The notes below the pieces were generated by a model. It was given only the letters and a program-made list of their open reading frames with translations. It ran no database searches and had not been told where the DNA came from. A DNA stretch of 63,949 bases, counting the filler, from Octopus bimaculoides (taxonomy: Eukaryota), in assembly GCF_001194135.2 (NCBI RefSeq). It is 8 parts of 7 records of this genome, joined end to end, with 100 filler letters (N's around TTAATTAATTAA, not from the genome) between each part and the next. Parts side by side here need not be neighbours in the genome. Positions count along the whole stretch, not along the records: positions 1 to 12,805 come from NC_068996.1; positions 12,906 to 34,416 come from NC_068986.1; positions 34,517 to 35,703 come from NW_026331345.1; positions 35,804 to 47,262 come from NC_069000.1; positions 47,363 to 53,811 come from NC_068998.1; 3 more parts are not named here. The stretch is one strand, 5' to 3'. Positions 1,313-51,763 of this stretch are shown here, piece after piece. Position numbers and translations under genes: made by a program. Within the stretch, counting starts at the first letter, position 1; each line of letters begins with the position of its first letter.

Positions 1313-1506
1313 GGGAGAATTCACAAAAAAAAACAAAAGACGAAGACAGGTGGTGTAGAAAACAAACAGATGTATTAGTATAACGCTCGGGGAATTGAAA
1401 AAAGTCTTTAACGTTTCGAGCCTACGCTCTTCTACAGAAAGGAACACAGAAAGAAACAAGCAGAGAAAGAAATGTGTGTTGTGGTTAGCGATCTATCATG
1501 GCGAAT
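1313..1506 (-). mobile_element. Penelope-like terminal repeat (family F), left arm of an inverted pair
   Basis: Reverse complement of 1749-1941. Carries CTGTAGAAGAGCGTAGGCTCGAAACGTT. Its 3' end abuts TA repeats. Confidence 0.6.
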
Positions 1507-1748
1507 ATATATACATATCACACACCACAGCACACCACATCACACCACTCCGCACACACTAGCACTGACCACTTCCCAGCCCCACATTTTCACACCTACA
1601 CTTACACACACGCACACGTCAAGGTCACCAGCCCTCTTCCGCACGCACATACATACTCTTTTATACACACGCACCTTCGCTTTGGGATCACCACCACTTT
1701 ATTATCTCCCCTTCTTCCTAGCTTTCCTGTGTTACCCTTCTGTCCTTC

Positions 1749-1941
1749 ATTCGCCATGATAGATTGCTAGCCACTACACATTCTTTATTTTCTTTCCTCG
1801 TTTCTTTCTGTGTACCTTTCTGTGGAAGAGCGTAGGCTCGAAACTTTAAAAAATTTTTCACTTCCCGAACATTAAACTAACACATCTGTTTGTTGTCTAC
1901 ACCACCTGTCTTCGTCTTTTGGGTTTTTTGTGAATTCTCCC
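1749..1941 (+). mobile_element. Penelope-like terminal repeat (family F), right arm of an inverted pair
   Basis: CTGTGGAAGAGCGTAGGCTCGAAAC at 1820-1844; ends GAATTCTCCC followed by TATAT. Confidence 0.6.
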
Positions 1942-2169
1942 TATATGTGTGTGTGTGTGTGTGTGTGTGTGTGTGTGTATATTTATGTATGTATGTATGT
2001 ATATATATATATATATATATAGAAAGAGAGAGAGAGATACGTATGTATGTATATACATATGGGGTCTCCCCAAATGAGGTGTATGCGTATTGAATGATTA
2101 TTCAGTCATTGTAAATTAAATATCATTTCATATACAAAATTCAATAGAATCTACAAACGGAATTTAATT

Positions 2170-3170
2170 TTTGTAGTTATGAACGCCTGATTTCAAACTG
2201 ATGACTGTTTTGGTCGAGACACGGCAGATAACAATAACACGATGCAAACATCAAGATATATTTCATTCGGTGTTTGTGCAATTTTCATTCAATGGCAGCC
2301 TTCAATTTTTTTATTGTTACCGGTTTTGTAAAGTAAACTTTATCTTTTAAGCATTCTTATAAAAATTTCGTAGTGTGAGGTCCAGTGAATGTAGAGGATG
2401 TTATATTGAACATTTCTTCCTATCTGCTTGTTTGGCAAAATCTCATCAAGATAGGCCTTGTAGTATTGTGAAAATGCCACTTGTCAGGAATAAAATTTCT
2501 CATCTTTGAAGTCCTTCTTGAATGCTTGGCACGACAGATTATCACAGATTTTTAATAAAACGAACCCAGTCACAGTACTGTCAAAGAATAACTGTCCAAA
2601 TTAATCTTTTTGATGTCACATCACACCATACAGTAACTTTTGGTAAGTGAACATGGTGTTTCTCCGTAATCTGCGGATTGTCTAATAGGTGTGTAACTGT
2701 AACGGTTAATTGAACGGTTAATTTAACTTAAATGAAACCTCATAACTCCAAACAAAGTCAGTTGAAAAGTGTGTATCTTCTACACGTCTCACCAAGTACC
2801 ACCAACAAAAGACTCCACTCATCAGTCTGGATCATTTTCATTGAGAGCATGGACTATTCTTGGTATGAAGGTTTTCCAATGACAGACAGTCCTTCGTAAT
2901 ATGAAACTCACTCACCGCACAGATTCTCTTGAACACTGGCAATATAAGCACCTTTTCTTTCTTTGAGTGCTCGTCGATTTTCGCAGTTTTCCGAGACGGT
3001 TCTCGTGAAATTCTGAACAGTTCAATCTGATTGAAATTTATCTCTAACTCGAATAATGAAAAGGCGTGTACATGGATCTTTCAAATTCCATCCTAAACTG
3101 TCTTTGCATTTTGACTGCATTCAGAGTATAGTCTGTCTTCCTTGATAATTTCTAATGGTTTAATTCTATA
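2170..3170 (-). pseudogene. Decayed Tc1/mariner-superfamily transposase (DUF4817-type)
   Basis: Frameshifted peptides IVHALNENDPD, TDFVWSYEVSFKLN and EKHHVHLPKVTVWCDVTSKKI match the ...WSDEA.F.L.G and V.VWCG motifs of this group. Confidence 0.8.
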
Positions 3171-48552: not shown

Positions 48553-48900
48553 TATTGTCCAAATGTTCTCTGAAAGCATCGACATCTCTCAGAAATCTGA
48601 GCTTGTTTGGTAGATTGTTGAAAAGTTGTTGGCCCTAGAAACCTAAGCTGAGCCGTTTCTCTGGTGGAGAGGAAAGGGATTTTTGGTACAATGCGGTGGC
48701 GTTCAATTCGGAGTTTGGTGTAGCTATTAGTCTTAAAATCGAGAGTTAAACCTACCAGGATCTTCCATTTGTATATCACTGCGTCTTCTCTCTTGGAAGT
48801 CCAGCCTCACTTCTTTAAGTCTATTCCAGATGTGATCGAAGCTTTACTGGGTTTGTGCACCAAACAGTTGCAGGCTTCCCGCGTGTTTGGAGGGTTAGTG
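48553..48900 (-). mobile_element. CR1/L2-group LINE ORF2 C-terminal fragment
   Basis: VIYKWKILVGL and SLGF*GQQLFNNLPNKLRFLRDVDAFREHLD match the YIIY.WKI..G and GPQLFN.LP..LR...FK..LD motifs. Confidence 0.75.
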
Positions 48901-50204
48901 ACCACCACGATTACTACTACTACTACTACTACTACTACTACTACTACTACTACTACTACTACTACTACTCGGGCACAATTGGTAGAGCGTCCGCAGAAAT
49001 GCCGTGTGGCATTTCTTCCGACTGGTTACGTTCTGTGTTCTAATTCCTCCGAGGTCGACTTGGCCATTTTTTTCTTTTTTTTTCAGTCTGTTTCAGTGAC
49101 TCAACTGTTGCGCCGTGTAAGCGTTCTTTGTGTTGTGGCGTTGGACTGCTTCGTATATATGTGTGTGTATCTGTCAATATAAGTGTGTTGTGTGTCTATG
49201 TATGTGTGTATGTGGGAGGGGGGTAGACAAGCATAACACGCAGTTATATATATATATATATATATATATATATATATATATATATACATATATATATATA
49301 TATATATATGCACATGCGTATTTTATATGTGTACACACACACACATACACACACAGATACGCACACACATACATACGCACAAACATATATGTATGTACGT
49401 GTTTGCCATCTGACCGACAACATACGTCTGTGTATGCATATATACATATGTGTGTGTGTTTATGTAAGTATGTATCTATGTATGTGTTTAGTGCTTATTG
49501 TTGTTTTTCCCGCCACATCGTGTTTGGTATTTTGGAGGGTAGTTCAAACAGAGGTTTCGTTGGTTATCGTTTAATATAACCAGCCAGCATTTCCAGTGTC
49601 ATGTCCCATCACAAAGACAGATCGGGTTACATCCCAACCACATAAGACTGCCATAGAAATGTCCATTAAAGGTTCAAATGACAAGCTTTAATACGAAATA
49701 AAACAGGACCAAAAATATATAACTTTCTGTTTATTTTCTTCTTTTTCTAGCTTGTCTCTCACCTTTGTCTCTACCTGTATCTATACAAGTGTATATATAT
49801 GTATATATTTATATGTGTGTGTGTGTGCGTACGTGCGTGTGTGCATATGTGTGCGTGTGTGCGCGTGTCTGTGTATGTGTGTGTGCGTTTGTGTGTACGT
49901 GTGTGTATGTGCGTGTGTGTATGTGTGTGTGCATTTATGTATGAATGATAGCATGTCTGTAACTGTCTCTCCATACATGCTTGCAATTTTTCTTTCTATC
50001 GACACACATGTGTGCATAATATAATGTGTGTGCGTAGAGCGTAATGTGTATGTGTGTCAGTGTGTGTGTGGTATAATGTGTGTGAGTGGGTGTGTGGTAT
50101 ACTGTGTGTATAGTGTAATACAATGGCGGAGGAGAGGGTGAGTATCTGTGCTACTAAGTTAATGTGGAGTTTGTGAATGTTTATAAATTATTTATCAAAA
50201 TATA

Positions 50205-51110
50205 TGAGGTCGTCAAGTATGAAATTTGTAGGAAAGAAAAAAGTGTTTGGTAATGTTTTATAAATACAAGGAATAGTTTTATCCATCAAAGTATGCACCC
50301 ATATTATCAATGCATTTTTGCCATTTCAGCGGTAGCTTGTCCAGCCCGGAACTGTAAAAGCCTGGCAATCTAGAGTCAATAAAATCATGGAAGGCCTGTT
50401 TTGCAGCATCGTCGGAATTAAATTTTTTTCCTATCAAAAAGTTATCCAAATTCTGAAAGAAGTGGTAATGAGTGGGGGGNNNNNNNNNNNNNNNNNNNNN
50501 NNNNNNNNNNNNNNNNNNNNNNNNNNNNNNNNNNNNNNNNNNNNNNNNNNNNNNNNNNNNNNNNGGGGGGGGGGGAGATCAGGTGAGTATGGTGGATGAG
50601 GGAGAACTTCCAACTCCAACTCCCGTAGTTTCGCCAATGTAATTTTTGCGTTGTGTGGTCTGGCGTTGTCTTGCAATAAAATAGGAGTGGGTCTGTTAAC
50701 TAACCTAGGCTGTTTTTTTGTAAGTTTCTGCATCATTTGGTCAAGCTGGCTGCAGTATACTTCGGCCGTGGTTGATGAACCAGGTTCAATGAAATCATAA
50801 TGAATCACACCTGCGCCAGATCACCAAACACACACCATCAGCTTCTTTTGATGAATTTTGATTTTTAGACTGTGTTCTGGTGGCTCGTCGTTGTCCAACC
50901 ATTGTGCTGAACGCTTACAGTTGTTGTATTGGATCCATTTCTCACCACATGTTACAATTCGATTTAAAACTGATTCATTTTTGTGACGAGAAAGTAGCAT
51001 AATGCAGGCTTCCAAACGTTACTGTTTCTGATTTTCATTGAGTTCCTTTGGAACCCACTTATCCAACTTTTTCACTTTACCTGTTTGAACTCGGTGAGTC
51101 AATATTGTTT
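50205..51110 (-). mobile_element. mariner (DD34D, Mos1/Hsmar-like) relic
   Basis: DKWVPKEL, RIVTCGEKWIQYNN, KKLMVCVW, ILLQDNARPH and LPHPPYSPDL motifs; TA|TGAGGTCGTCAA terminus. Confidence 0.92.
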
Positions 51111-51511
51111 GCTTGCAAATATCAAGCAACTACAATAATTCAGCGAGATAAAGTTGTGGTAAATGCATACAGCCGGGTTCGCCGCCATCCACTGCCAGAG
51201 CCTCGTGGAGCTTTTAGGTGTTTTCGCCCAATAAACACTCACAACGCCCTGTCTGAGAATCGAAACCGCGATCCTACGACCGCGAGTCCGCTGCCCTAAC
51301 CACTGAACCATTGCGCCTCCACGAATATTGCATACATCAAAGCTGTATCGTATACGGTATTCCATTCACATCTTATTGATTTGTAATTCAAATTTGTGTC
51401 AATGGCTTCTTTGAGTAACATTCTCTTAATCATTTTTCATTTAAATTATGTAAATTACTTCGTTTTGGGATTTGGCTTGCAAGATTCTTTATGTGTGTTG
51501 AAGCATATTCT

Positions 51512-51763
51512 GAGAGTCATTCTCTTTTGGTGCCTTATAATTTTAACACACTCACCGGTAAAATTTCCACTTATTTCATTTTAACTTTTCTAAAATTTTC
51601 GTTGCGTTTTGCAACCTTTTCAATAGTTTTGAAACTATAGCGTCTAAATTACTGAAAAGGTTGCAAAACGCAACGAACATTTTAGAAAAATAAAAAAGAA
51701 ATAAGTGGAAATTTTTACCGGTGCGTGTGTTAAATTATAAGGCACTAAAAGAAAATGACTCTC
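51512..51763. repeat. ~250-bp near-perfect palindrome with HHR-like motifs in both arms
   Basis: 51512-51622 is the reverse complement of 51653-51763 with few mismatches. Confidence 0.9.

Follow-up and report, generated by a model that had tools for sequence, protein, structure and literature searches.

A 63,949-nucleotide window of Octopus bimaculoides DNA (the whole stretch that was analysed, along which all positions are counted) contains three elements, here E1, E2 and E3, each made of two inverted arms with a hammerhead-like motif in each arm, and the question is how this common layout arose. An earlier note on this DNA had raised the possibility of a separate strand-symmetric class, mobile in foldback form. 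It had also suggested a link to Penelope-like elements (PLEs), which is well supported by the anatomy of the motifs and the shape of the insertions, and E1-E3 very probably originate from PLEs. The account that we hold with good confidence is that they are old 5'-truncated head-to-head insertions of three unrelated PLE families, with a decayed-hammerhead pseudo-LTR in each arm and the foldback as a by-product of landing. Most of the pairs are probably single insertion events.

The three inverted-arm elements described previously (1313-1941, 32574-34046 and 51512-51763) were borne out, as their arms align at 80-92% identity. The arms of E1 (1313-1506 and 1749-1941) are 88.8% identical over 196 aligned nt, those of E2 (32574-33009 and 33592-34046) 79.9% identical over 472 columns and 87.1% over the unique outer 232 nt, and those of E3 (51512-51632 and 51643-51763) 91.7% identical over 120 nt. 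Duplication during assembly is excluded for all three, because the arms are too diverged. BLAST between the three elements came back blank, in agreement with the earlier statement that they lack mutual similarity. The spacers, put at about 30 to about 600 bp in the earlier note, instead measure 242 bp in E1, ~580 bp in E2 and ~10 bp in E3, so the minimum is not 30. Nor are the first two true spacers, since both are family sequence prolonging one arm: they are the extra 5' portion of the longer of two 5'-truncated copies. E1 and E2 each join a longer and a shorter copy by their 5' ends with the 3' ends outward, and E3 joins two equal stumps 5' to 5', also with the 3' ends outward.

Motifs were compared with a type-I minimal hammerhead ribozyme (HHR) descriptor comprising stem I, core, stem II, GAAA, palindromic stem III, NUH and stem I. 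The left arm of E1 (1313..1506, minus strand) is the short inverted 5'-truncated copy, whose 3' end runs outward into a TA run. Its HHR-like motif (1406..1441, minus strand) fits the descriptor, with a 4-bp stem I, a CUGUAGA core (A6U), an extra A, a 4-bp stem II with a GUAG loop, GAAA, palindromic ACGU and a predicted cut after 1410. A TA-rich junction (1507..1521) lies between the two 5' ends; its contig depth is ~30-fold below the next bin, and it is therefore taken as non-family sequence. A TA-rich junction of this kind would also fit two separate insertions. The former spacer (1522..1748, plus strand) is the CA-rich interior of the longer copy and high-copy family sequence, and the right arm (1749..1941, plus strand) is the 3' end of this 420-bp, CA/TA-rich copy, followed by TATA and (TG)n. 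The right motif (1817..1850, plus strand) has a CUGUGGA core (A6U), a decayed stem III and a predicted cut after 1847. Two of the three insertions of the E1 family in the window are unpaired arms, one of them beside an assembly gap: a solo copy between TA runs, truncated inside the stem II loop (3943..4063, plus strand), and a copy with no 5' partner seen, whose 3' end lies within a TA run next to the N gap at 4947-5167 (5188..5320, minus strand).

The longer copy of E2 (32574..33583, minus strand) is ~1 kb of non-coding sequence whose interior consists of degenerate CA/TA-rich repeats; its inner boundary is approximate, and its 3' end points to a long stretch of (TA)n. The spacer aligns in the orientation of this left copy, and the shorter inverted copy forms the right arm (33592..34046, plus strand). 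Both motifs have CAAAA replacing GAAA and a GUC triplet; the left one (32595..32655, minus strand) has CUGACGA and a predicted cut after 32600, and the right one (33965..34025, plus strand) CUGAUGA and a predicted cut after 34020. On the left, an ATG at 32642 opens a 23-codon frame that runs to the element end, and on the right an ATG at 33978 lies one base inside stem II. A search for a protein relative of the E2 N-terminal peptide, a weak test, gave no candidate among longer proteins.

In E3, the left arm (51512..51632, minus strand) carries a minimal HHR (51590..51626, minus strand) with zero deviations from the descriptor: a UUGAAAA core of the U3-A8 type, an extra G, a 5-bp stem II, GAAA, palindromic AAUU and a predicted cut after 51593. 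The right arm (51643..51763, plus strand) has a decayed motif, with a CUGAAAA core at 51652 and GAAC. The centre (51633..51642) holds a short palindrome, CTATAG, without a TA tract, and the symmetry axis lies 14 nt upstream of each core. The E3 motif was found at 8 loci in metagenome contigs, which we rejected as relatives and took as chance matches; the 5 of 8 listed match over only 19-21 nt apart from weak short hits.

We also examined whether the earlier claim of an outward HHR-like motif in every arm holds. The orientation stood, and a minimal type-I HHR near the 3' end within a terminal repeat, a trait of EN+ PLEs, is present in 5/6 arms with 0-2 deviations. The cores are degenerate, and the loose pattern of the earlier note was not enriched in the window (23 sites vs. 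18.5 ± 3.7 in 20 shuffles) and missed E2; a strict CUGANGA..GAA scan was not enriched either (7 vs. 4.1 in shuffles). The full descriptor with at most 1 deviation gave 2 matches in the window, both in arms, against a shuffle mean of 0.33. With at most 2 deviations it gave 8, of which 5 fell in the 6 arms, against a shuffle mean of 4.1 for the whole window, a count that is partly fitted as this descriptor was loosened after E2 was known. An intact core (CUGANGA/GAAA or U3-A8), as a catalytically competent hammerhead has, occurs in E3-left only, the sole arm with a core of published type; both E1 cores carry A6U, G12 is changed in both arms of E2, and E3-right fails the descriptor. An Rfam scan detected no hammerhead in the whole window (E≤1) or in three short excerpts (E≤10); every match listed scored below the gathering cutoff, and most were microsatellite artefacts. 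Viral and metagenome contigs were also scanned for the E1 motif, with 0 matches.

Folding of the whole elements predicts that the motif bases pair with the antisense arm (33-34/35 in E1, 67-69/73 in E2 and 35/37 in E3), and forcing stem II carries a predicted penalty of ~24 kcal/mol in E1 and E3. Because a foldback transcript would, on this prediction, tie up its sense motif with the antisense arm, a 3' end set by the ribozyme is improbable. That part of the earlier proposal is also at odds with the positions of the termini, which lie beyond the predicted cut sites by 94-97 nt in E1, 26 nt in E2 and 81 nt in E3. These copies probably carry the hammerhead as a passenger.

The shape of the insertions resembles published EN+ PLE insertions in being head to head, with unequal arms, 5' truncation and a (TA)n bias (Arkhipova 2013, PMC3846280; Craig 2021, PMC8557442). 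Craig 2021 found an inverted 5'-truncated copy often directly at the 5' end of a PLE and (TA)n as a preferred target, and Arkhipova 2013 reported head-to-head as the commonest arrangement, with palindromes at the junction, as at the E3 centre. Cervera and De la Pena 2014 (PMC4209133) described dual minimal HHRs that lie on opposite strands with ~100-700 bp between them, as well as a 5'-truncated PLE whose 5' end carries a second HHR of opposite strand. In the window, a 5'-truncated copy with an adjoining head-to-head inverted copy is likewise present; the 3' ends of E1 and E2 copies lie in or adjoin TA runs, with E1-family ends and the left end of E2 directly adjoining them, and E3 lies outside any TA run. 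In EN+ PLEs a 30-40-bp tail on one end is optional and the TSD is variable; at the ends of E1-E3 no clear TSD or 30-40-bp tail was seen, the TSD search returned only 5-7-nt matches, as expected by chance, and microsatellite flanks mask TSDs. Unlike EN+ PLE insertions, E1-E3 have no demonstrated ORF, tail or TSD, and they are likened to PLEs at large, not to one clade (Penelope/Poseidon, Neptune or Hydra).

The motifs themselves are like the metazoan minimal type-I HHRs of PMC4209133 in their 3-5-bp stem I, G10.1-C11.1 pair, extra base after A9 (between 9 and 10.1), stem III palindromes ACGU and AAUU, as in the mollusc examples, and U3-A8 variant, and also in the 100-700 bp that separate dual motifs of opposite strand. 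They differ from those examples in the apparently family-wide A6U of E1, and in the CAAAA for GAAA in both arms and the long stem II loop of E2; A6U and CAAAA were absent from 56 aligned published examples, though A6U may figure among the PLE hammerhead variants of Lunse et al. E2 also resembles Poseidon_Ac (PAc) of Anolis (Frangieh 2024, PMC11167929) in having an ATG where stem II begins, and, as in PAc, the ends lie downstream of the HHR cut. A further likeness lies in AT-rich targets with both strands cleaved, double-strand nicking being inferred here. PAc, in contrast, is autonomous and active, whereas E1-E3 are decayed stumps with no demonstrated protein link. Animal non-LTR retrozymes (Li 2026, bioRxiv 10.64898/2026.07.22.740005) are similarly non-coding, bear type-I HHRs and are proposed to be PLE-derived, but theirs are direct tandems with at least 2 sense HHRs; the arms here are inverted, with one sense motif per strand, and a direct tandem of the motif was absent. 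The foldback insertion shape is thus already published for PLEs, and the finding is an ordinary, further example of known anatomy. In the published articles searched for octopus Penelope hammerheads or the E1 motif, no account of these families was found.

In the favored account, a PLE protein would nick both strands of an AT-rich target, and reverse transcription would begin at a constant position downstream of the hammerhead. The same insertion would also build the second arm, either by priming from both break ends or by fold-back self-priming (Arkhipova 2013), and the two cDNA ends would be joined in the middle. The foldback would arise anew with each landing, as a by-product and not as a replicating unit. 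Counting against this account are the missing RT or GIY-YIG remnant in the frames scanned, the blank search with the E2 peptide, the want of a clear TSD or tail, the few non-majority letters that the E1 arms have in common, the TA-rich E1 junction, the lack of a strand-changing joint among those listed, and core changes unlike the 56 published examples.

Sequencing-run contigs and reads aligned to E1 alone bear on whether its family moves in paired form. Summed contig depth, which serves as a relative profile only and not as a copy number, lay at 5e4-7e5 across most of the spacer and reached 3.3e6 at the motif, compared with ~1e3 at the junction and 38-66 for single contigs among those listed. 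The family is very abundant in contigs, with depth peaking near the 3' end; the junction of E1 itself shows no amplification. Contig loose ends upstream of 1521 run on in CA-rich sequence, so that the internal part of the family in other copies continues upstream, not into an inverted arm; 3' loose ends are TA-rich. No strand-changing joint occurred among the 15 of 53 joints listed, and no contig piece among those listed spanned the whole of E1. Records listed no RNA run with E1, which counts neither way. In two raw RNA runs, ~85% of reads continued into unlike sequence, with the two directions about equal. No piles of read starts or ends were seen, which fragmented libraries seldom show. Neither A>G nor T>C places stood clearly above C>T when set against the DNA runs. 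No more than 6 and 4 reads reached 99% likeness or higher, and these data therefore speak at the level of the family, not the locus, and are silent on editing. The A6U non-canonical core appears to be common to this abundant family.

These results bear on the strand-symmetric, non-autonomous foldback class of the earlier note, in which a transcript from either side, cut by a sense ribozyme at its 3' end, would set the template end for Penelope RT. The layout common to three unrelated elements and the E1-family RNA reads on both strands (library strandedness being unrecorded) are in its favor, yet we regard it as very improbable: the unamplified junction (~1e3 vs. 1e5-1e6 beside it), the unpaired E1-family copies and the upstream continuation in other copies largely refute it for E1, while the distance of the ends from the predicted cuts, the sense motif predicted to be locked in a long duplex, the need of minimal HHRs for two sense copies and the deviation of 5/6 cores oppose it generally. 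In addition, HHR cleavage was dispensable and RT started internally for the anole PLE in vitro (Frangieh 2024). Effects through dsRNA, ADAR or small RNA are possible side effects open to any inverted repeat. Just as doubtful is an identity of E1-E3 as DNA transposons of MITE type, in which the arms would be long terminal inverted repeats and the motifs coincidental. Their inverted ends do lie in a TA context and the loose motif pattern is not above shuffles, but full-descriptor matches concentrate in the arms, which are asymmetric extensions of one sequence. MITEs and foldback transposons have both termini in their copies and a fixed TSD, whereas E1-family copies are one-ended, with a 3'-weighted depth profile; E2 and E3 have one copy each.

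An improbable but weightier alternative is that in each pair a single family inserted twice, independently and in opposite directions, into one self-complementary (TA)n tract, which is plausible for E1 only. There, a 12-15-nt TA-rich non-family stretch separates the copies, the family is densely represented (3 insertions in 64 kb), and the arms are no closer to each other than to the 5188 copy (91.5% and 89.9%); a common template for them is only putative, because they have a non-majority letter in common at only 1/12 diagnostic sites. Inverted neighbours occur among SINEs of the window too (12046-12481), but these face each other by their tails across a microsatellite and not by their 5' ends. 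Against independent insertion, the E2 and E3 families have only two arms each in the window, E3 lacks the central tract, and the chance of adjacency in one of 65 TA tracts, a rough and after-the-fact estimate, amounts to ~0.023 for E1, with E2 and E3 at ~0.004 apiece. More tenable, though still tentative, is the suggestion that the parent families are non-autonomous, non-coding, SINE-like PLE derivatives that are trans-mobilised and insert singly or head to head. Such derivatives are already published, the long copies of E1 and E2 are CA/TA-rich without a Pfam match in scanned frames, and the upstream loose ends of E1 remain CA-rich. No RT or GIY-YIG remnant was detected inside or next to E1-E3, and the element with the same termini sought in the window was likewise absent, among the frames scanned (300 of the 355 in the window that are non-repetitive and span 45 aa or more); GIY-YIG had 0 matches, and one weak RVT_1 match lay 2.2 kb from E3. 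However, heavy 5' truncation alone explains the missing ORF, and autonomous PLEs also have a long non-coding stretch before the 3' pLTR (0.9-1.5 kb in Pen1_Av; Arkhipova 2013). This suggestion is compatible with head-to-head PLE insertion, autonomy being the sole difference.

Finally, E1-E3 are useful for repeat annotation, as such pairs can be mislabelled MITEs, and their families are possible material for two questions about PLEs, the role of the hammerhead and the formation of inverted arms. If a family is dense, has a core change that appears to run through all of it and includes many pairs of differing age, both questions could be tested by genome-wide counts. A speculative and rather unlikely extension sees in the E1 family a PLE parasite of very high abundance and without a protein of its own, which carried the A6U core as it spread and whose pairs each form in a single priming event from both ends of a cut in self-complementary (TA)n. 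If this is true, it would provide a natural genome-scale test of hammerhead cleavage in PLE mobility and of inverted-arm formation.

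We compared the arms of the three foldback elements pairwise, and all three inverted pairs claimed in the earlier note exist; as it also claimed, E1, E2 and E3 have no similarity to one another. The inverted arms are 88.8% alike in E1 (1313-1506 vs. 1749-1941), 79.9% alike in E2 (32574-33009 vs. 33592-34046; 87.1% in the outer unique part) and 91.7% alike in E3 (51512-51632 vs. 51643-51763). E3 is a near-perfect hairpin with its axis 14 nt upstream of both cores. E2 consists of a copy of about 1 kb and an inverted copy of about 455 bp, and the inner repeats of its spacer are oriented as the left copy. 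An AT-rich 117-bp hairpin flanked by TA runs (34129-34245) lies 80 bp off the right end of E2; the hammerhead descriptor described below had no match in it.

The foldback spacers are not unique DNA. Sequencing runs under five organism labels contain the E1 family. Onto 1507-1946 we mapped, at 80% likeness, two sets of DNA contigs and the raw reads of two RNA runs, with two of the family-containing runs among them. Summed contig depth, which is a relative profile only and not a copy number, was 5e4-7e5 across most of the E1 spacer, with a maximum of 3.3e6 on the motif and only about 1e3 at the junction (1507-1521); single contigs among those listed from the same run had a depth of 38-66. Loose ends before 1521 run on into CA-rich sequence, not into an inverted arm, and the 3′ loose ends of the family are TA-rich. 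Therefore, E1 is two joined copies of a very abundant parent family: a 420-bp 5′-truncated copy and a 194-bp inverted copy, with a short TA-rich junction between them. Unpaired arms of this family occur at 3943-4063 and at 5188-5320, the latter adjoining an assembly gap. Identical 134-bp direct duplicates (3739-3872 and 4090-4223) stand on two sides of a 10-N gap and are probably either an overlap in the assembly or two alleles, one of which lacks the 3943-4063 stump. Two alleles would offer an empty-site view of insertion into a TA run.

The loose hammerhead (HHR)-like motif of the earlier note was not enriched in the window (23 sites vs. 18.5 ± 3.7 in shuffles), and an Rfam check detected no hammerheads. 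A descriptor of the complete type-I minimal HHR with one deviation allowed gave two matches in the window, only in the left arms of E1 and E3 (shuffle mean 0.33); with two deviations, a setting loosened after E2 was seen, five of eight matches fell inside the six arms (shuffle mean 4.1 in 64 kb). Because descriptor matches concentrate in the arms, the motifs are hammerhead-derived, but their cores are decayed (A6U in E1; CAAAA instead of GAAA in either arm of E2; GAAC in the right arm of E3), and a published-type core was found only in the left arm of E3. A6U looks family-wide in the E1 family, since position 6 is U in all three core-holding copies of the window and position 1823 is absent from the best 40 of 212 differences in the mapped reads and contigs. 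This change is not among the 56 aligned examples of the Cervera supplement (PMC4209133). At position 1844, a loose-end consensus (run X3) suggests an E1 subfamily with GUA, not GUU, as the triplet at the predicted cut site. An E3 19-mer recurs as many short dispersed copies on either strand of two metagenome loci (L004 and L008), where it is probably a microbial repeat unrelated to E3.

The proposal that a sense ribozyme defines the 3′ end of a foldback transcript did not hold up. The elements end 94-97 (E1), 26 (E2) and 81 nt (E3) past the predicted cuts. Predicted folds pair 33-34 of 35 (E1), 67-69 of 73 (E2) and 35 of 37 (E3) motif bases with the antisense arm, and whole-element folds leave none paired inside the motif; in E1 and in E3 the penalty for forcing stem II would be about 24 kcal/mol. 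Double-stranded RNA is possible from any inverted repeat within a host transcript; the RNA reads mapped onto E1 offered no sign of it at the locus itself. Minimal HHR motifs require two sense copies (PMC4209133; reviewed in PMC6765202). Non-LTR retrozymes are arranged as direct tandems (Li 2026 preprint, bioRxiv 10.64898/2026.07.22.740005), whereas E1-E3 have inverted arms. E2 has an ATG where stem II starts, which in the left arm begins a 23-codon open frame; a protein search with the peptide, a weak test, gave no relative. The search for target-site duplications at the element ends turned up matches of 5-7 nt, as chance would give, in flanks where microsatellites hide such duplications, and no clear 30-40-bp tail was seen. 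The 300 of 355 window frames scanned held no GIY-YIG domain and no convincing RT domain; a weak RVT_1 match (E 0.005) lies on the minus strand at 54015-54260, 2.2 kb from E3.

The window is AT-rich animal DNA whose repeat types look octopus-like. It is dense in runs of (TA)n and of (CA)n, in SINE-like repeats and in assembly gaps, and it also has mariner and Helitron scraps. Mariner-like remnants at 18783-19953 and 50434-51018 comprise decayed transposase sequence within long inverted termini, and a Transposase_1 match (E 3.2e-9). Helitron-like PIF1 helicase fragments (PF05970, E 4.5e-15 and 1.4e-5) occupy 54781-55799, a region that includes a 94-bp inverted duplicate of 95% identity (54880-54973 vs. 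55707-55799). Inverted repeats of 46 bp (87%) around a SINE-like copy at 24839-25263 are possibly a small DNA-transposon remnant. A 13-member SINE-like family forms a tail-to-tail pair across a microsatellite at 12046-12481, a long hairpin with a spurious MIR4208 match, which serves as an inward-pointing control for microsatellite stacking. Two further copies stand head to head at 28594-29225; about 190-310 bp, including an N gap, separate them.

Two separate insertions could account for E1, alone among the three pairs. If arms choose at random among 65 TA tracts, a head-to-head pair has a probability of about 0.023 for E1 and about 0.004 for E2 or E3; these values are rough and were estimated post hoc. 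Consistent with separate origins, the E1 arms have a non-majority letter in common at only 1 of 12 sites, the left arm carrying the majority letter at 10 of them. These letters show that each arm decayed on its own from one family sequence, but not that the two had a common template. No strand-changing joint was present among the 15 of 53 joints listed for mapped E1 reads and contigs.

The best-supported explanation of the foldbacks is the ordinary, already known insertion anatomy of Penelope-like elements (PLEs). Cervera and De la Pena (2014, PMC4209133) described a minimal motif with an extra base, a palindromic stem III and the U3-A8 variant. They also reported paired motifs on opposite strands, separated by about 100-700 bp, and, in a truncated PLE, another motif at the 5′ end on the opposite strand. 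Craig (2021, PMC8557442) reported inverted 5′-truncated partners of PLE copies, tails and a (TA)n bias, and Arkhipova (2013, PMC3846280) reported head-to-head pairs with palindromes at the junction and proposed self-priming. In the study of Frangieh (2024, PMC11167929), a PLE protein cut both strands of AT-rich DNA and extended them, and reverse transcription began internally, downstream of the hammerhead, whose cleavage was dispensable in vitro. We infer that both arms would usually be made in one insertion, the second by two-ended priming or fold-back priming. E1, E2 and E3 are real elements and probably further cases of a known PLE kind; because an Octopus vulgaris annotation contains 190 Penelope-like families, amounting to 6.83% of the genome (PMC13282606), their families may already be in repeat libraries.
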